This document shows, one piece after another, positions 3,261 through 20,921 of a stretch of 21,101 nucleotides of DNA. This DNA is from a virus. Below the pieces are notes generated by a model that saw only the letters and a program-made list of their open reading frames with translations, was not told the DNA's origin and searched no databases. The stretch lies in the UHGV virus genome UHGV-1793583. One strand, 5' to 3'. The translations under genes and the position numbers were made by a program. Position 1 is the stretch's first letter. Each line of letters starts with the position of its first letter.

Positions 3261-3433
3261 ACGAGATCGAAGATGGTATGTATTTTCATAAGGTATTTGA
3301 CATCGCCTATTTGGTAAGAGGTGAAGAGGTGATGATAAGGAATGAAGATGTTCCTTATTGGGAATTAAGCGACATGGATCGCGAACACATGCAAACATTG
3401 CTTGATAACGGCCTGATATACAGAACTGCGTAA
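3257..3433 (+). CDS. hypothetical protein (58 aa), not in supplied track
   Basis: ATG 3257 overlaps upstream stop (ATGA); MNEIEDGMYFHKVFDIAYLVRGEEVMIRNEDVPYWELSDMDREHMQTLLDNGLIYRTA; last ORF before promoter-terminator module. Confidence 0.4.
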   Translation: MNEIEDGMYFHKVFDIAYLVRGEEVMIRNEDVPYWELSDMDREHMQTLLDNGLIYRTA

Positions 3434-3441
3434 AGCCGTAT

Positions 3442-3470
3442 TTGCAGAGCGTAAACAAACAGATTAAAAT
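3442..3470 (+). promoter_or_regulatory. sigma70-like promoter TTGCAG-N17-TAAAAT upstream of lysis cassette
   Basis: -35 at 3442-3447, exact 17-bp spacer, -10 at 3465-3470. Confidence 0.5.
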
Positions 3471-3498
3471 ATTACCTAACAATGCGAAATTGTAATTA

Positions 3499-3520
3499 CC
3501 CGGCCCCGCGCCGGGTTTTT
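3499..3520 (+). terminator. intrinsic terminator (CCCGGC-loop-GCCGGG + T5)
   Basis: 6-bp GC stem, 5-nt loop, then TTTTT; about 30 nt downstream of the promoter -10 and 20 nt before the holin RBS. Confidence 0.65.
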
Positions 3521-4970: not shown

Positions 4971-5555
4971 ATGGCTAAGGCTAAAGGCATCAAGTTGCCT
5001 CAATTCAAAGTTCCGCTCTTTGAGCATACAACTGTTTTCTTCTGCCCGACCCGCGACATGTTTTATGAATTTTGCGAGAAGGCAGGGATTCCGATCGAAC
5101 CTGATTTCGAACTGGCAGGCGGCCTGACATTAACCTGCACGGGTGAGAAAGGCGGTAACTTCTACGTGATCGCAGTATTCGATAATGAGTTAGGAACGCT
5201 GGTACATGAATGCGCCCACACTACGTTCCACGTTTTAAGCGATGTAGGCGTCGTGGCAACCACTGATCCAACTCACCCGGCAAACGAGACTTATGCTTAC
5301 ATGGTAGGCCGCATCTTTGACGCATTCTTCCCGATCCTTGCTGAATCAAACGAAGCACAGGTTGCAGCAATGCAGGCGGCTGAAGTCGTTGAGCAGGCAT
5401 TGGAGCAGGCAGAACAGGCGACTAAATCAGCAGAACAGGCAGTAGAACAGACAGAGGAGCAGAAAGAAGAGAAAAAACCAGCTAAGAAAGGCAAACGTAA
5501 GCCTAAAGCAAAAGAAGCGCTTGTACCGCGCGTGATGAGCTTTAAACGGGGGTGA
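4971..5555 (+). CDS. HExxH-motif protein (putative zinc-metallopeptidase-like) with Glu/Gln/Ala helical linker and Lys-rich tail, 194 aa
   Basis: Motif LVHECAHTTFH; C-terminus KKPAKKGKRKPKAKE; GGATAGAGGA RBS; family not identifiable by eye. Confidence 0.6.
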   Translation: MAKAKGIKLPQFKVPLFEHTTVFFCPTRDMFYEFCEKAGIPIEPDFELAGGLTLTCTGEKGGNFYVIAVFDNELGTLVHECAHTTFHVLSDVGVVATTDPTHPANETYAYMVGRIFDAFFPILAESNEAQVAAMQAAEVVEQALEQAEQATKSAEQAVEQTEEQKEEKKPAKKGKRKPKAKEALVPRVMSFKRG

Positions 5556-5557
5556 TT

Positions 5558-5626
5558 ATGGTTACTTTCCTGTTAGGTTTATTTATCGGAATGGCTGCGG
5601 CTGTAATATTGCTGGTTGGTGAATAA
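5558..5626 (+). CDS. hydrophobic micropeptide 1 (22 aa, MVTFLLGLFIGMAAAVILLVGE)
   Basis: ATG 3 nt after upstream stop, GGGGGTGA RBS; single predicted TM helix. Confidence 0.4.
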   Translation: MVTFLLGLFIGMAAAVILLVGE

Positions 5627-5630
5627 TGTT

Positions 5631-5747
5631 ATGGATGATTATATCATTGCCGGATTGATCGGCATTTCTGTATATCTGGTGGGTTTTATTGCAGTTGCAC
5701 TAATAAACGCAAAGATCAAGCGCTGGGTGGAGGGGCAAGATGATTGA
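5631..5747 (+). CDS. hydrophobic micropeptide 2 (38 aa, MDDYIIAGLIGISVYLVGFIAVALINAKIKRWVEGQDD)
   Basis: ATG 5 nt after previous stop; single TM helix, charged C-terminus. Confidence 0.4.
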   Translation: MDDYIIAGLIGISVYLVGFIAVALINAKIKRWVEGQDD

Positions 5748-5814
5748 CCCACTCGTTATCCTTTCTTTATGCGTCGCTGTATGGCTGGCGATCATGATAT
5801 TCATTGAAAGCTGA
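5740..5814 (+). CDS. hydrophobic micropeptide 3 (24 aa, MIDPLVILSLCVAVWLAIMIFIES)
   Basis: GGAGGGG 6 nt upstream; ATGATTGA overlap with previous ORF. Confidence 0.4.
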   Translation: MIDPLVILSLCVAVWLAIMIFIES

Positions 5815-5825
5815 AGGTATTCACC

Positions 5826-5900
5826 ATGAATATTTACGATCTCATCTGGTGGTCAGTGGTCGCCGTCATTATCTATTTCTGGTGGAAGAATGTTGTATAG
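5826..5900 (+). CDS. hydrophobic micropeptide 4 (24 aa, MNIYDLIWWSVVAVIIYFWWKNVV)
   Basis: GAAGG 7 nt upstream of ATG; single TM helix. Confidence 0.4.
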   Translation: MNIYDLIWWSVVAVIIYFWWKNVV

Positions 5901-5908
5901 GTGACGGC

Positions 5909-6013
5909 ATGGATATATTCGAATTACTGGCGATTATGTGCGGAATGATGCTAGGCGTTGTCGCCATAATCATAATCATAATCATCGGCCTTGTTATGGG
6001 TAGCATCAAATGA
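5909..6013 (+). CDS. hydrophobic micropeptide 5 (34 aa, MDIFELLAIMCGMMLGVVAIIIIIIIGLVMGSIK)
   Basis: AGGTGA upstream of ATG 5909; contains (ATAATC)x3 repeat encoding the Ile run; track ORF 5804..6013 is the non-ATG extension. Confidence 0.4.
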   Translation: MDIFELLAIMCGMMLGVVAIIIIIIIGLVMGSIK

Positions 6014-6090
6014 ACGCATACGAAATGCTATTGCTGGTGGCTGTTATTACAGTTATTGCCGTTGATTTCTATCGAGGGTTTAAAAGATGA
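6010..6090 (+). CDS. hydrophobic micropeptide 6 (26 aa, MNAYEMLLLVAVITVIAVDFYRGFKR)
   Basis: ATGA start/stop overlap with micropeptide 5. Confidence 0.4.
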   Translation: MNAYEMLLLVAVITVIAVDFYRGFKR

Positions 6091-6158
6091 GAGAAGCAGA
6101 CTTCTTTTGCATGATTATAGTGATTGTCATCGTTGCGGTGCTTTTAAGTGTTAACTGA
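6087..6158 (+). CDS. hydrophobic micropeptide 7 (23 aa, MREADFFCMIIVIVIVAVLLSVN)
   Basis: ATGA start/stop overlap with micropeptide 6. Confidence 0.4.
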   Translation: MREADFFCMIIVIVIVAVLLSVN

Positions 6159-6174
6159 ATCGCAGGAGTTAAAA

Positions 6175-6243
6175 ATGAAATGGCTTGATTTCTTTTTCCT
6201 GATTGTCGCAATTGTTCTAACCATGACCGCGCTGACTCAATAG
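6175..6243 (+). CDS. hydrophobic micropeptide 8 (22 aa, MKWLDFFFLIVAIVLTMTALTQ)
   Basis: AGGAG 7 nt upstream of ATG 6175. Confidence 0.4.
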   Translation: MKWLDFFFLIVAIVLTMTALTQ

Positions 6244-6311
6244 GTTGTGGCTTGGACGCGCATTTTATGCGCTTCCTAAATTCATCAAGTCAAATAAAGT
6301 GGATGGTAACG

Positions 6312-6897: not shown

Positions 6898-8376
6898 ATG
6901 CTGACAATCAAAGAACGAGTTATTCAGTCCAAATGTGAAAACGATGGCCTGTTTTTCAATCGCTACTTCTATAAGCAAGCGAACGGAACGAAGATGTTAA
7001 TCTCAGGCCATCACTTAGCTATCCGCGACGCACTGCAACGCGTTGTCAATGGTGAGATAACCCGACTCATCATTAACATCCCTCCAGGGTACGGCAAAAC
7101 CATGATCGCAACTATCAACATGATGGCGCGGTCACTCGCAATAAATCCCCGCACACGATTCCTTCATGTCTCCTATTCCAACAACCTGGCGTTACTCAAT
7201 TCCTCGACCGTAAGAAACATGATCTGTACGCCTGAATATCAGGCAATGTGGCCCATGAGGATCCGCAACGATGCAAACTCAAAATCAATGTGGTGGACTG
7301 AATACGGTGGCGGCGTGTATGCAACGTCATCGCTTGGCCAGGTTACAGGGTTCCGCGCGGGGTATATGGAACCAGGATTTAACGGCGCGTTAATCATCGA
7401 CGACCCATTAAAACCCGCTGACGCTTACTCTGACGTGGTGAGAAAGCAGGTTAACACAAACTATAACGACACGCTTGCTTCACGTCTGGCAGTGCAAACA
7501 ACGCCTGTTATCGTCATCATGCAGCGCATCCACTACGATGATTTGTCCGGCTACCTGCTACGCGGTGGGAGCGGTGAAAAGTGGTATCACCTTAACCTGC
7601 CAGTGAAAATCGACAATAGCGTTGACTACCGGGATTTGTACCCTGAAAACGAGTTCGCTATCCCCATTCCTCATAACCTGCCAGATGGCTGGCTATGGCC
7701 TAAAAAGCACAATGACGCCCATGAAGCTGGGCTGAAAGCACACAGACGGTCATTTGAGGCCCAGTACATGCAGCGCCCGCGTAAATTCGACGAAGAGGGT
7801 GCGTTGTGGACAGAGGCGATGATTACCGCCGCGCACCGGATGCAGATAACGCAGGAGAAAATCCGCACTGTGATAGCCATCGACCCGGCGACAACGTCAT
7901 CTGATGAGTCGGACGAAACGGGGATCATGGCGTGTTCCGCCTATGGTGGCGGCAAGAATGCTCAGTATTCTGTTGATGGTGACTACTCGGGCCGCATGTC
8001 ACCTAATGACTGGGCGCAAGCATCAATGAACGCCTACAACATCCATGAAGCTGACGCGATAGTCATCGAAACCAACCAGGGCGGCGAAATGGCAGAGGCC
8101 ACTTTGCGTAATGCCGGATTCAAAGGCCGCATTGTTAAGGTGCACGCAAGTAAAGGTAAGTTCGCCCGTGCTGAACCAATATCGGCACTGTATGCACAAG
8201 GAAGGGTGGCACACACTGGTGAGCTATACACGCTGGAAAATCAAATGATGGAATACGTGCCAGCCACCGCCAAAAAATCCCCTGACCGTATGGATGCGAT
8301 GGTATGGGGTATCACCGAATTAAGCCAGCCACAGGCAATGGGCCTCATGTTACCGAAGCGCCTGCGCGGATTTTAA
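6898..8376 (+). CDS. terL: terminase large subunit (492 aa)
   Basis: Walker A PPGYGKT, Walker B-like LIIDDP, nuclease-type acidic residues (VIAIDPA, DETGIMA); GAGGTG RBS 5 nt before ATG 6898. Confidence 0.9.
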   Translation: MLTIKERVIQSKCENDGLFFNRYFYKQANGTKMLISGHHLAIRDALQRVVNGEITRLIINIPPGYGKTMIATINMMARSLAINPRTRFLHVSYSNNLALLNSSTVRNMICTPEYQAMWPMRIRNDANSKSMWWTEYGGGVYATSSLGQVTGFRAGYMEPGFNGALIIDDPLKPADAYSDVVRKQVNTNYNDTLASRLAVQTTPVIVIMQRIHYDDLSGYLLRGGSGEKWYHLNLPVKIDNSVDYRDLYPENEFAIPIPHNLPDGWLWPKKHNDAHEAGLKAHRRSFEAQYMQRPRKFDEEGALWTEAMITAAHRMQITQEKIRTVIAIDPATTSSDESDETGIMACSAYGGGKNAQYSVDGDYSGRMSPNDWAQASMNAYNIHEADAIVIETNQGGEMAEATLRNAGFKGRIVKVHASKGKFARAEPISALYAQGRVAHTGELYTLENQMMEYVPATAKKSPDRMDAMVWGITELSQPQAMGLMLPKRLRGF

Positions 8377-8409
8377 AATCTGACTCACAATCCCCCACAA
8401 GTTTTTCTA

Positions 8410-8439
8410 TTTTTCGCGTAGCAACGCGTAAACATGTAT
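8410..8439. promoter_or_regulatory. conserved 30-nt leader element TTTTTCGCGTAGCAACGCGTAAACATGTAT (copy A)
   Basis: 27 of 30 identical to copy at 20512-20541; both lie 15-30 nt upstream of an SD; CGCG-hexaloop-CGCG hairpin potential. Confidence 0.45.
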
Positions 8440-8454
8440 TCAGGAGTAAACATT

Positions 8455-9825
8455 ATGCCATCCAATTTAGAATTGGCGGTTAATGCTGCCTTGTCACAAC
8501 GTAAGGCGGCCTATGCCCGCTATGCAGCCGCCAACCCATTCACTATGGGGATAGATGCCAAACGCGATACTGCGTGGAGTGAATACGGATTCAAAGAAGA
8601 GATCACGTATGACGACCTGTACAAACTGTACAGACGCGGTGGTATCGCTCACGGTGCTGTGGAAAAGATTGTTACTACTTGCTGGCGCACCAAGCCAAAG
8701 ATGATCGAAGGAACTGAAGACGGGAAAGCGAAAAAGGAAACACCGTGGGAAAGAGAAATCAAGAAGAAATTTAACAACAGATTTTGGCGCACTGTTGCTG
8801 AATGTGATCGCCGCCGCCTCATTGGTCGTTATGCTGGCCTGTTGATTCATGTCAGAGATAACCAGCCGTGGGATCAGCCAGTGACAAAAGGCGTAGGCAT
8901 TGCCAAATTTACCCCGGTATGGGCTGGCGCTCTTACACCGAAGGACTTCGAAGAAAACCCGGATAATGAAAACTATGGCCTGCCAACGTGGTGGGAATAC
9001 AAAGAACGCATTAACAGTAAGACCATTGCTAGAAAGATCCACCCTGACCGCATATTCATCTTTGGCGACTATTCTGATGATGTCATCGCTTTCCTTGAAC
9101 CGTCCTATAACGCCTTTGTGTCACTTGAGAAGGTGGAAGGGGGTAGCGGTGAATCATTCCTGAAAAACGCCGCCCGCCAGCTTGCTATCTCGTTCGATAA
9201 AGAGATTGACTTCCGTTCCCTTGCTGCAACATACGATTGCGACGTTACAGAGTTACGCGAAAGATTTAATGAGGCTACTGCTGAAATGAATAAGGGTAAT
9301 GACGTAATGATGGCGTTACAGGGTGCAACAGTAAGCCCGCTGGTTACTGCTGTATCTGACCCGTCATCAACCTATGACGTAAACCTGCAAACCGCCGCCG
9401 CTGGTGTTGATATTCCAACCCGCATCCTGGTTGGGAACCAGCAGGGAGAACGCGCATCAACCGAAGACCTGCGTTACTTCAACAGCCGCTGCATGACCCG
9501 CAGGGAGGAAATCGGTGGCGAGATTGAAGATCTGTTCCGCAAGATGGCAGATCTACGCCTTATCAGTATGCCAGTAGACGTATCAGTGCTATGGGACGAC
9601 CTTAACGCCATGACCAAAGCGGAGCTACTGGAAGCCGCAGACAAGATGGCGCAAATCAATCAGGCTTGTTTGGCTACTGGTGAAGAAATATTTAGCGGTG
9701 ACGAGATCCGCGAGGCTGCCGGATACGATGGCCCAGCCAGTGTAGTAGAAACGGAAGAGGAAGACGATGATGAAGGTGAAGAAGATAATCAGGCGAATAC
9801 CTCCAGCCGCGATAATGCCATCTAA
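8455..9825 (+). CDS. portal protein (456 aa)
   Basis: Immediately after terL; size and acidic C-terminus typical of portals; ATG 8455 with GGAG 8 nt upstream preferred over track start 8434. Confidence 0.7.
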   Translation: MPSNLELAVNAALSQRKAAYARYAAANPFTMGIDAKRDTAWSEYGFKEEITYDDLYKLYRRGGIAHGAVEKIVTTCWRTKPKMIEGTEDGKAKKETPWEREIKKKFNNRFWRTVAECDRRRLIGRYAGLLIHVRDNQPWDQPVTKGVGIAKFTPVWAGALTPKDFEENPDNENYGLPTWWEYKERINSKTIARKIHPDRIFIFGDYSDDVIAFLEPSYNAFVSLEKVEGGSGESFLKNAARQLAISFDKEIDFRSLAATYDCDVTELRERFNEATAEMNKGNDVMMALQGATVSPLVTAVSDPSSTYDVNLQTAAAGVDIPTRILVGNQQGERASTEDLRYFNSRCMTRREEIGGEIEDLFRKMADLRLISMPVDVSVLWDDLNAMTKAELLEAADKMAQINQACLATGEEIFSGDEIREAAGYDGPASVVETEEEDDDEGEEDNQANTSSRDNAI

Positions 9826-17218: not shown

Positions 17219-17247
17219 CTTATACAAAATGTATTCGTTGAAGTGAA
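17219..17247 (-). promoter_or_regulatory. sigma70-like promoter for moron 1 (-35 TTCACT, 17-bp spacer, -10 TATAAG)
   Basis: -35 is reverse complement of 17242-17247, -10 of 17219-17224; -35 overlaps the GTGAAGCCATTTTGTA motif. Confidence 0.4.
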
Positions 17248-17299
17248 GCCATTTTGTATAGAATAGAGATCTAGATCACAATTTTCATGAGGTTAAATC

Positions 17300-19968: not shown

Positions 19969-20223
19969 TCATTTATGTGCCCCTTTTACGCCACAGTGGC
20001 GGTTGTATTCCAGATGGTCAATAATTAACCACATCTTTAGATCTTCGCTGAATAACCGCCAATCGGGGTTGATGTCAAATTTATAACCGTAGCCATCGCG
20101 TAATTTTTTGGGGTTGGCCTCTTTTTTCAGGAAAGCGTTTAATAAGGCCTTGCCCTTTTTGATGATCCGGTCCTGTGCGTTTTTCTGTGCTTTCAGGTTT
20201 TTACCAATCGCCACCAATTTCAT
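19969..20223 (-). CDS. small basic protein of unknown function (84 aa)
   Basis: Reverse-strand ORF; ATG at 20223 preferred (GGGGTGGG RBS); Lys-rich; second gene of two-gene minus cassette. Confidence 0.5.
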   Translation of the reverse strand: MKLVAIGKNLKAQKNAQDRIIKKGKALLNAFLKKEANPKKLRDGYGYKFDINPDWRLFSEDLKMWLIIDHLEYNRHCGVKGAHK

Positions 20224-20241
20224 AACCCACCCCACAATCCA

Positions 20242-20397
20242 TTAGCTGACCACTTTCAGGAAGAAATCACGGTATTCATCTTCTTTTGCATTCATCATGA
20301 ATTGACCGTATTTGAATGCGTCATCGAAGCCTTTTACAATCGCCACTTCCACCTGTTCGAATGCGTTGTTCAGCATTACCACTACATAGCGTTTCAT
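20242..20397 (-). CDS. small acidic protein of unknown function (51 aa, MKRYVVVMLNNAFEQVEVAIVKGFDDAFKYGQFMMNAKEDEYRDFFLKVVS)
   Basis: ATG at 20397 with AGGAGGGG RBS; first gene of minus cassette; 18-nt gap to downstream basic-protein gene. Confidence 0.45.
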   Translation of the reverse strand: MKRYVVVMLNNAFEQVEVAIVKGFDDAFKYGQFMMNAKEDEYRDFFLKVVS

Positions 20398-20439: not shown

Positions 20440-20468
20440 TATATACATCTTGTTACGTCCTGTGTGAA
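20440..20468 (-). promoter_or_regulatory. sigma70-like promoter for moron 2 (-35 TTCACA, 17-bp spacer, -10 TATATA)
   Basis: -35 is reverse complement of 20463-20468, -10 of 20440-20445; -35 overlaps the GTGAAGCCATTTTGTA motif. Confidence 0.45.
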
Positions 20469-20486
20469 GCCATTTTGTAAACTGGG

Positions 20487-20492
20487 TATAAT
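20487..20492 (+). promoter_or_regulatory. consensus -10 hexamer TATAAT without clear -35, possible plus-strand promoter for the gpM-like gene
   Basis: Perfect TATAAT 8 nt after the 16-bp motif; nearest -35 candidate TGTGAA is poor. Confidence 0.3.
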
Positions 20493-20511
20493 TCTTGTGA
20501 CGAAGTTCTAA

Positions 20512-20541
20512 TTTTTCGCGTAGAAGCGCGTAAAGATGTAT
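20512..20541. promoter_or_regulatory. conserved 30-nt leader element TTTTTCGCGTAGAAGCGCGTAAAGATGTAT (copy B)
   Basis: 27 of 30 identical to 8410-8439; 27 nt upstream of the gpM-like start. Confidence 0.45.
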
Positions 20542-20567
20542 GCAATATGTAACTTATAGGGGGAATC

Positions 20568-20921
20568 ATGCTTGAAGTTTTCAAATGGACGCCACAAAGA
20601 AGCTACAGCGTGACCAGGGAACCAAATGTGTCAGTCATTAAACTTGGTGATGGATATGAACAGCGCCAGGCGAAAGGGATTAACACATTACTTGATAAAT
20701 ACACCCTGGTTTTTAAAGGCAGTAGCGCAGGATGCGGTGATGGTGGAAACGTGGCGATCCAGGCAGAAGCATTCTTGAGGGCGCGCGGCGCTGTCGAGGC
20801 TTTTTACTGGTCGCCGTCTATGGATGGCGTGCAAAGGCTTTTTGTTTGCCGTAGCTGGAGTATGACTAAGGACGGGCCTGTGTACACGCTAAACGCAACG
20901 TTTGAACAAGTTGTTGGCTAA
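20568..20921 (+). CDS. minor tail protein, lambda gpM-like (117 aa)
   Basis: Follows tape measure; motifs KLGDGYEQRQAKGINT, FYWSPS and C-terminal ATFEQVVG match my recollection of lambda gpM (FGDGYSQRA..., FLWTPP, ...EFEQVVN); AGGGGGAA RBS. Confidence 0.8.
   Translation: MLEVFKWTPQRSYSVTREPNVSVIKLGDGYEQRQAKGINTLLDKYTLVFKGSSAGCGDGGNVAIQAEAFLRARGAVEAFYWSPSMDGVQRLFVCRSWSMTKDGPVYTLNATFEQVVG

Follow-up and report, generated by a model that had tools for sequence, protein, structure and literature searches.

A family-specific, two-copy element in the leaders of the portal and gpM-like tail genes of mEp021-type phages

The closest described analogue of the element analysed here appears to be the SAS/ESAS repeats of cluster K mycobacteriophages, which are short, phage-family-specific repeats found in one orientation, immediately 5' of the start codons of a subset of genes (PMC3203893). 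SAS are present in 11-19 copies per genome, include the Shine-Dalgarno (SD) sequence and precede non-structural genes, and ESAS are imperfect inverted repeats with a variable spacer (PMC3203893). Neither these repeats nor the present element show RNA covariation, and the question of RNA versus DNA arises for both (PMC3203893). The element is likewise specific to one family, kept across genomes and placed in one orientation immediately 5' of its start codons, here those of the portal and gpM genes. It differs from SAS in having two copies, in belonging to a structural late operon, in leaving the SD separate and in its core, which is a tandem repeat of GCGTAR.

Small hairpins next to a ribosome-binding site, whose conserved loop and bulge bases a protein reads in a sequence-specific way, are typified by the MS2 and PP7 coat-protein hairpins and by the T4 gp43 and RegA sites. 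The element departs from these operators in that it occurs in a temperate siphovirus with a lambda-type Q, that two genes share the site and that copy 2 lies 16 nt from its SD. The stoperators of cluster A mycobacteriophages are asymmetric, short and located in small gaps between genes, where they follow the direction of transcription; the protein bound to them halts elongation into the lytic genes in the prophage (PMC9283540, PMC6550527). Stoperators, however, number about 20-30 per genome and match the operator of the early lytic promoter, whereas the element is present twice and has nothing that corresponds to it in the immunity region. The boxB hairpins of mEp021 nutR1, nutR2 and nutL resemble the element in combining a short GC stem with a purine-rich loop (PMC11893012), but the element differs from a lambda-type boxB by the absence of a boxA, a loop that is not GNRA-like, its location in the late region and a stem without covariation. 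Finally, there is a resemblance, and a resemblance only, to the CpxR box (PMC9603713): the element is a tandem repeat with a 10-bp period and, in both copies, a third GTAA 18-19 nt downstream, but its first half-site is GTAG and an invariant GC precedes each GTA.

The two copies and their setting in the late operon

The window, that is, the whole stretch of 21,101 nt analysed here (virus genome UHGV-1793583), shares 92% identity with phage mEp021 and five sister phages and 86% with phage MagusPhagus, and is the late region of a phage of the mEpimmI group (the mEp021 group; E. coli prophages). This group comprises temperate, Nus-dependent, non-lambdoid coliphages published in 2025 (PMC11893012), which reportedly match lambdoid phages in frequency in human faecal E. 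coli; the paper makes no mention of a 30-nt leader element. The mEp021 family encodes a lambda-type Q antiterminator (Pfam PF03589) and an N-like protein, Gp17, for which three nut sites have been described, each of them in the early region (PMC11893012). The late operon of mEp021 is broken three times by minus-strand gene clusters with flanking terminators, which sit before the tape-measure gene, gpM and gpL; the window contains a bidirectional terminator 3' of the tape-measure gene. The two-gene insert adjoining copy 2 (Table 1) is probably a toxin-antitoxin pair and seems to be fixed in the family, given that mEp021 and KKa019 carry these two genes as well.

Table 1. Positions of the two copies, their cores, the surrounding conserved blocks and the adjoining genes in the window
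Feature	Position	Strand	Description
Copy 1	8410..8439	+	TTTTTCGCGTAGCAACGCGTAAACATGTAT; in the 79-nt gap from the terL stop (8376) to the portal ATG (8455)
Copy 2	20512..20541	+	TTTTTCGCGTAGAAGCGCGTAAAGATGTAT; between the minus-strand ParE-like (probable toxin-antitoxin) insert and the gpM-like gene (ATG 20568)
Copy 1 core	8416..8432	+	GCGTAG-N4-GCGTAAA, repeat starts 10 nt apart
Copy 2 core	20518..20534	+	GCGTAG-N4-GCGTAAA
Copy 1 extended leader block, near-invariant	8402..8454	+	U-rich tract, element, SD AGGAG 8442-8446, second GTAAACAT at 8446-8453
Copy 2 extended conserved block	20507..20557	+	TCTMA, element, ATGTAACTTAT (20547-20557) touching the SD
TATAAT hexamer	20487..20492	+	19 nt 5' of copy 2; GTGAAG 17 bp further upstream
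Portal gene, downstream of copy 1	8455..9825	+	Pfam PF06381
gpM-like minor tail gene, downstream of copy 2	20568..20921	+	Pfam PF05939
Two-gene insert adjoining copy 2	19969-20397	minus	51-aa gene, then 88-aa ParE-like toxin (Pfam PF24732, E = 8e-12)

The initial annotation had reported two 30-mers with 27/30 identity, and its coordinates are exact; both copies are on the + strand and differ at three element positions, 13 and 15 in the loop and 24 in the 3' flank. Both copies contain, as it had described, two CGCGTAR repeats 10 nt apart, both have the potential to form a CGCG...CGCG hairpin, and both lie on the coding strand of the structural genes that follow them. The identities proposed for these genes, portal and gpM-like tail protein, are borne out by Pfam (Phage_portal_3 and Phage_min_tail, the latter with E = 4.5e-29), which also supports the terminase subunits and the tape measure in the window. 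The proposed distance of 15-30 nt to the SD applies to copy 2, which ends 16 nt from its SD (AGGGGG, 20558-20563) and 26 nt from the ATG, and fails for copy 1, which ends 2 nt from its SD and 15 nt from the portal ATG. The likeness of the two copies spans about 33-40 nt, with AAGTT..TCTMA 5' of the T run and TAT-N-CA on the 3' side. The portal start is most likely the one listed in Table 1, and not the in-frame ATG at 8434 within the element, because of the SD that precedes it and because PGAP picks the equivalent downstream start in E. coli KKa019. The GenBank record of mEp021 sets the portal start at the ATG within the element (L001 15635), yet marks a ribosome-binding site 3' of it.

A search for more copies, as had been suggested, returned these two sites only. 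A degenerate 27-position pattern with up to 3 mismatches occurs at two sites in the 21.1 kb window and at none in 100 dinucleotide shuffles; a 44-column weight matrix, applied to the window and to the whole mEp021 genome, gives no third copy, only two sites exceeding 5 bits; and nowhere in the complete mEp021 genome, other than in the two copies, is there a match to the core pattern GCGTAR-N3-5-GCGTAR. Nor is there an antisense partner elsewhere in mEp021, where complementary or repeated stretches do not go beyond the chance-level 10-12 nt. The TATAAT hexamer 5' of copy 2 is invariant in 26 distinct family sequences. A promoter consensus scan makes no call there, with only 3/6 matches at the -35; TATAAT and GTGAAG possibly constitute a plus-strand promoter, which would put copy 2 at about +13 to +43 of the transcript. 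The stretch ATGTAACTTAT, just 5' of the gpM SD, contains TAACTT and the start-stop pair ATG-TAA. TAACTT is known from the translational enhancer in the T7 gene 10 leader.

The inserts of the late operon are accompanied by other shared sequences. A second repeat, GTGAAGCCATTTTGTA, is present at 17243-17258 and 20464-20479, in the divergent regions 5' of the tape-measure gene and of gpM; on the minus strand it reads TTCAC(T/A)-17 bp-TATAAG/TATATA, and the two sites look like shared sigma-70 promoters for two minus-strand inserts. CRP-like sites at 17265-17280, 20496-20511 and about 30714-30729 of L001 (AGAGA-TCTAGA-TCACA, TGTGA-CGAAGT-TCTAA and CGTGA-CGTAGA-TCACA) each lie between a minus-strand insert and the next plus-strand tail gene. 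In relatives the half-sites persist while the 6 bp between them differ. The sites are centred at about -61.5 to -71.5 relative to the promoters predicted for the inserts, and overlap the positions at which predicted plus-strand promoters (TAGAAT, TATAAT, TGgTATGAT) would start. Because the number of CRP matches in the window is at chance (10 observed vs 9.5 expected), the CRP reading derives from position and conservation only. Elsewhere in the window, the region between the lysis genes and the small terminase subunit (4971-5555 and 5540-6250) encodes a 194-aa protein that has no Pfam match, contains an HExxH motif (LVHECAHTTFH) and ends in an acidic tail rich in lysine; after it comes a series of very small hydrophobic ORFs.

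Distribution, selection and variant anatomy

Both copies are present letter for letter in mEp021, and the copy 1 sequence is identical in mEp021 and in 76 collected loci. The element occupies exactly two places in each of the isolated phages of the group (7/7), and two copies per genome are likewise present in IMG/VR contigs and in one E. coli prophage. Outside the mEp021 group, the element is missing from every entry in a set of 50,697 phage records. A scan of IMG/VR with the core pattern yielded about 89 loci, all of the portal or gpM type except for two obvious chance matches. Loci were also gathered by protein homology, which avoids selection on the motif itself: the element was carried by all of the roughly 50 family portal loci so obtained, 15 nt from the ATG, and by 31/31 family gpM loci. 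The next-nearest gpM homologues (67-70% identity, in ordinary lambdoid contexts) are devoid of it. In a single scan with the capsid protein as query, a one-genome-per-species collection gave no relatives in other species, and the gpM-upstream region was found in only 35 of 5,426 complete E. coli genomes; a single metagenome scan with a flank anchor was swamped by chance matches and returned 5 family loci with no new variants. The element is confined to one narrow phage family, always with the same two genes. It stays on the portal gene despite an insertion of about 70 nt 5' of copy 1 in L201-type phages, and in the loci with this insertion the downstream element and portal leader are unaltered. 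The insertion (553-625 of L201, IMG/VR contig 3300045988_084845, and about 12 similar loci) lies in the gap between the terminase stop and the portal leader; within it are an ORF of 10 codons and the perfectly palindromic sequence CTTCGAAAA-A-TTTTCGAAG.

Conservation in relatives had been set beforehand as a test on which the element was to stand or fall; in the roughly 50 portal and 31 gpM loci it far exceeds that of the flanks. In the portal alignment, diversity per 10 nt is 0.004-0.026 over 8405-8454, compared with 0.15-0.19 in 8375-8404 and 0.05-0.2 in the coding flanks. In the gpM alignment it is 0.05-0.08 over 20508-20537, vs about 0.26 in both 20498-20507 and 20558-20567. Strong purifying selection acts on both copies, and each evolves independently of the other: the portal copy is canonical in genomes where the gpM copy varies, and no co-variation of copy 1 with copy 2 was found inside a genome. 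The element is real, family-specific and present in two copies as a cis element; it is not an artefact.

The anatomy of the site was deduced from 35 distinct variants (alignment A1). G14, C15, G16, T17 and G19 are invariant, as are G24 to A30, part of the upstream T run, and T33, A36 and C39 of the 3' tail. The A of the first repeat, GCGTAG, is replaced by G in one lineage. The base 5' of the first GCG is C, T or A, that 5' of the second GCG is C or T, and the three bases 5' of the second repeat are CAA, AAG, AAT, AGG, AAA, CGA or CTA. One T of the T run is G or A in some E. coli prophages, alignment positions 31-32 are variable, and the L117/L118 lineage has a 1-nt deletion between the repeats. 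A hairpin alone would be insufficient to account for this conservation, because positions irrelevant to folding are invariant, which indicates that the sequence itself is read. The pattern suggests that the element is a sequence-specific recognition site and not a purely structural hairpin, and the sequence-specific core points to a trans-acting reader.

RNA and DNA as candidate forms of the site

As RNA, the element can be written as a hairpin of 11 pairs and a single bulged U (AUUUUUCGCGU, a loop of four bases, RCGCG-U-AAASAU). This hairpin is predicted in every variant folded, at -6.2 to -9.3 kcal/mol (z-scores -1.4 to -2.6), the 30-mers alone giving -6.1 and -8.0 kcal/mol (z-scores -0.8 and -1.7). 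Across the 35 variants, 95% of the cells of the helix are paired, and six helix pairs vary on one side via G-U or A-U changes. The covariation analysis across related phages that the initial annotation had recommended lends no support to its stem: 0/11 pairs were altered on both sides in the 35 variants, shuffle controls being uninformative, and a covariation search of IMG/VR with the stem bases left free gave AT-rich chance matches only. The boxB of nutR2 served as a positive control for covariation at comparable divergence; its stem is compensatory, GCGC...GCGU vs CCGC...GCGG around the same UGAAAU loop (L001 6887-6925, L009 about 2181, L072 about 166). In a 200-nt context the probability of the hairpin is 0.85-0.99 for copy 2 and 0.02 for copy 1, where it is made improbable by the GC-rich 3' end of terL, which competes for pairing. 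The hairpin originally proposed can form, then, but it is weak, devoid of compensatory change and, at copy 1, hardly populated in its context; and the accompanying remark that differences spare the stem holds in the window but not in the family, where the first C of either CGCG is T or A in several lineages. Of the seven transitions observed at paired positions, six preserve base pairing in RNA of the plus strand and would not do so in the complement (neutrality p about 0.1), and the mean predicted stability cost of stem substitutions is 1.12 kcal/mol for those observed vs 1.81 for those unobserved (one-sided p = 0.06). U17, G19, the bulged U27 and U33 are invariant though irrelevant or unfavourable for folding. 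As modelled, the hairpin is compatible with the data and not demonstrated by them.

Tentatively, I favour an RNA operator in both leaders, which a protein would recognise and which would control translation or stability. I infer that RNA is the active molecule, that it binds a protein and that the output is translational or on stability; a translational operator or a processing/stability site are both possible, and the sequence does not separate them. The element would act in cis as a recognition site within the transcribed 5' leaders of two late blocks, one comprising the portal and head genes and the other gpM and the tail-tip genes. Its short GC stem would present the conserved 5' half of the loop (U-A-G) and the 3' bulge and tail (U-AAA) to a putative trans-acting factor, which would read the loop and the bulge/tail and thereby set translation initiation or mRNA stability for both blocks together. 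This proposal is favoured by the location of the copies, on the coding strand 15 and 26 nt from a start codon, a position kept family-wide. Copy 1 fits a translation-initiation region, since diversity is continuously low from the U-tract, across the SD, up to the ATG and the rest of the gap is variable, and it would be internal to a polycistronic late transcript, since there is no conserved promoter upstream and no room for one downstream. The 1-nt deletion in the loop of L117/L118 and the free 3' half of the loop, both tolerated, also argue for an RNA operator, and so do the fold-neutral invariants U17, G19, U27 and U33, which occupy the loop, bulge and 3' tail, the parts of an RNA hairpin that proteins usually read.

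Several facts argue against an RNA operator. The hairpin is weak and has no double-sided change; U11 of the extended stem is G or A in some E. coli prophages, with its partner A29 invariant; the KKa019 prophage has AGCG...UGCG, which leaves two GC pairs and one GU pair in the original register; no candidate RNA-binding protein was identified; and the part that varies least is a tandem repeat with a spacing of one helical turn, a classic signature of a DNA site. Simple occlusion of the SD cannot explain both copies, because their distances to it are 2 and 16 nt. Rfam gave no match at gathering score in the whole window and, at E <= 10 round each copy, two chance-level matches that do not meaningfully cover the element core. 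A more specific version of the proposal, in which a dedicated RNA-binding factor, possibly phage-encoded (for example Gp17 as an early translational repressor), couples synthesis of the portal, which initiates head assembly, to that of the tail-tip genes, is a rather unlikely one. If true, it would define a small post-transcriptional regulon in the late operon of a temperate siphovirus of the lambda-Q type. Such a regulon is not known to have been described for this kind of phage.

Nearly as likely as an RNA operator, and likewise uncertain, is a double-stranded DNA operator, in which a protein that binds tandem repeats, either phage-encoded or a winged-helix response regulator of the host, would read GCGTAG and GCGTAAA on one face of the helix. 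Transcription into the portal and tail-tip blocks would be blocked or modulated, either by a roadblock in the style of the mycobacteriophage stoperators or from an operator just 3' of the TATAAT promoter of copy 2. The DNA half-sites, mentioned only in passing in the initial annotation, are in fact the best description of the invariant core: two GCGTAR hexamers start 10 bp apart, and the base that precedes them, required for the hairpin, varies between C, T and A. The KKa019 prophage (AGCGTAGAAGTGCGTAAAG) has a weaker stem with both hexamers intact. T27 and A28-A30 are invariant although T27 is a bulge and the partners of the A-run vary, and changes in the T-run without matching changes in the A-run favour recognition of a tandem sequence; the T-run and the A-run flank the core, an arrangement typical of protein-binding sites that are bent. 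The placement of copy 2 at about +13 to +43 relative to the conserved TATAAT hexamer would suit such an operator. Moreover, GTAG(A/C)-N5-GTAAA resembles the CpxR box, GTAAA-N4-8-GTAAA (PMC9603713), GTAGC/GTAGA-N5-GTAAA agreeing at 8-9/10 positions with the quoted consensus, but the invariant GC before each GTA falls outside that consensus. The authors of the cluster K study were also inclined to DNA binding for ESAS, on similar grounds (PMC3203893). On the other hand, the spacing is 9 bp and not 10 bp in the L117/L118 lineage, no related sequence exists at the immunity region, the late promoter or elsewhere in mEp021, and no candidate phage protein was identified. A DNA operator, besides, need not be strictly co-oriented with ribosome-binding sites and adjoin them, and the conservation of copy 1 covers about 50 nt.

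Three further explanations have to be set against the RNA operator. It is improbable that the element is an activator-dependent late promoter with AAASAT (8430-8435, 20532-20537) as its -10, a start at the conserved CA (A8442, A20544) and the repeat, centred near -21, in place of a -35. Such a replacement of the -35 by a repeat is known from the Lpa-dependent late promoters of P1 and from MerR-type spacers. The key sigma-70 positions, -11 A and -7 T, are invariant and -9 and -8 vary, and an invariant C39 and nearly invariant A40 lie exactly 7 nt 3' of the hexamer, but -12 and -10 are an invariant non-consensus A, there is no -35 element or TG extension, and the consensus scan is negative at both copies. 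Since antisense inserts and terminators break up the late operon, promoters inside it would be of use; yet the family has a lambda-type Q (PF03589) and no second late activator is known in it. At copy 2 a CRP-like TGTGA-N6-TCTMA (20496-20511) is centred at -41.5 from the proposed start, but no CRP site is present at copy 1, and a better TATAAT already lies upstream of copy 2. Copy 1 would give a transcript that starts at the first base of the SD, with a 13-nt leader, and the late-activator site offered as one possibility by the initial annotation is geometrically implausible there, because any start falls in or after the SD. Less probable still, the N-like Gp17 would bind the element as a boxB-like hairpin, which would serve as an extra late nut site or as a translational operator for N. 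The short GC stem, the purine-rich six-base loop and the co-orientation with transcription are those of a boxB, the copy 2 loop, UAGAAG, is one position off the first six bases of the mEp021 nutR1 loop, UGGAAGU, the loop of the L105/L107 variant is UGGAAG, and copy 2, like a nut site, lies just 3' of a possible promoter. However, all nut sites of the family have (C/T/A)GCTC(T/A)TTAA(A/C)AA 7-8 nt upstream, and the element has no boxA; the family loops start with UG and are GNRA-like (GAAA, GCGA), whereas those of the element start with UA (AGAA, AGCA); the nutR2 stem covaries (G-U to C-G) and the element stem does not; and the three published nut sites are all in the early region (PMC11893012). 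Least credible of all is the idea that the element has no function of its own and persists by hitch-hiking, as what is left of a leader duplication or as the joint of a recombination between modules. There are two copies only, and the loop triplets CAA and AAG are occasionally swapped between contexts (P_L002, M_L057, L378-380), which could be gene conversion, but both copies are sharp minima of diversity amid variable intergenic sequence, they otherwise evolve independently, and when the upstream neighbour of copy 1 changes, as with the L201-type insertion, the element stays with the portal gene.

Several known motif types were compared with the element and rejected. An intrinsic terminator does not fit, as on both strands the hairpin comes after the T run and is trailed by an A-rich tail, and a terminator scan made no call. 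The longest predicted helix has 11 pairs and a bulge, vs about two helical turns needed for an RNase III site. A nut site was discarded for want of a GCTCTTTAA-like boxA, only the U-rich TCTMATTTTT being present upstream, and for its loops, UAGCAA/UAGAAG vs UGAAAU, UGGAAGU and UGCGAA in the family, UGGAAG occurring only in the rare L105/L107 variant; an ordinary sigma-70 promoter was discarded for the absent scan call, an AAASAT that lacks a -35 and a copy 1 RNA that would begin at the SD. The operator of NagC/Mlc has TT/AA at positions +/-5,6 of a 23-bp quasi-palindrome (PMC4288165), where the element has CG/GC. A link with lambda-Q binding or a late promoter motif came from GCGTAAAGCCGTAT at 3428 (3428-3441), which matches the 3' half of the element and is not conserved in relatives: these have CCGTAAG, CAGTAAAG or CGTTAACG at that site, and the second GCGTAAAC is TCGAAAAC or GCGCAAAC. 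Judged by these sequences, the match is a coincidence. The adjacent block just 5' of the holin gene (3442-3520) is conserved across relatives and contains TTGCAG-17 bp-TAAAAT (3442-3470), a -10-like AACAAT and the hairpin CCCGGCCCCGCGCCGGG with a T run (3499-3520). It is likely to be a late promoter with a terminator and resembles lambda PR'-tR'; the terminator would be only about 25-40 nt past the start.

Implications for mEpimmI phages

The element is the first candidate cis-regulator of the structural genes of mEpimmI phages, whose late operon is unusual in being broken up by antisense inserts and terminators. An RNA operator would add post-transcriptional control to a type of phage thought to rely on Q antitermination alone, and a DNA site would point to an unrecognised regulator of, or a host input on, the virion assembly genes. 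On either reading, the element offers a precise 33-nt target for mutagenesis in a genetically tractable phage.
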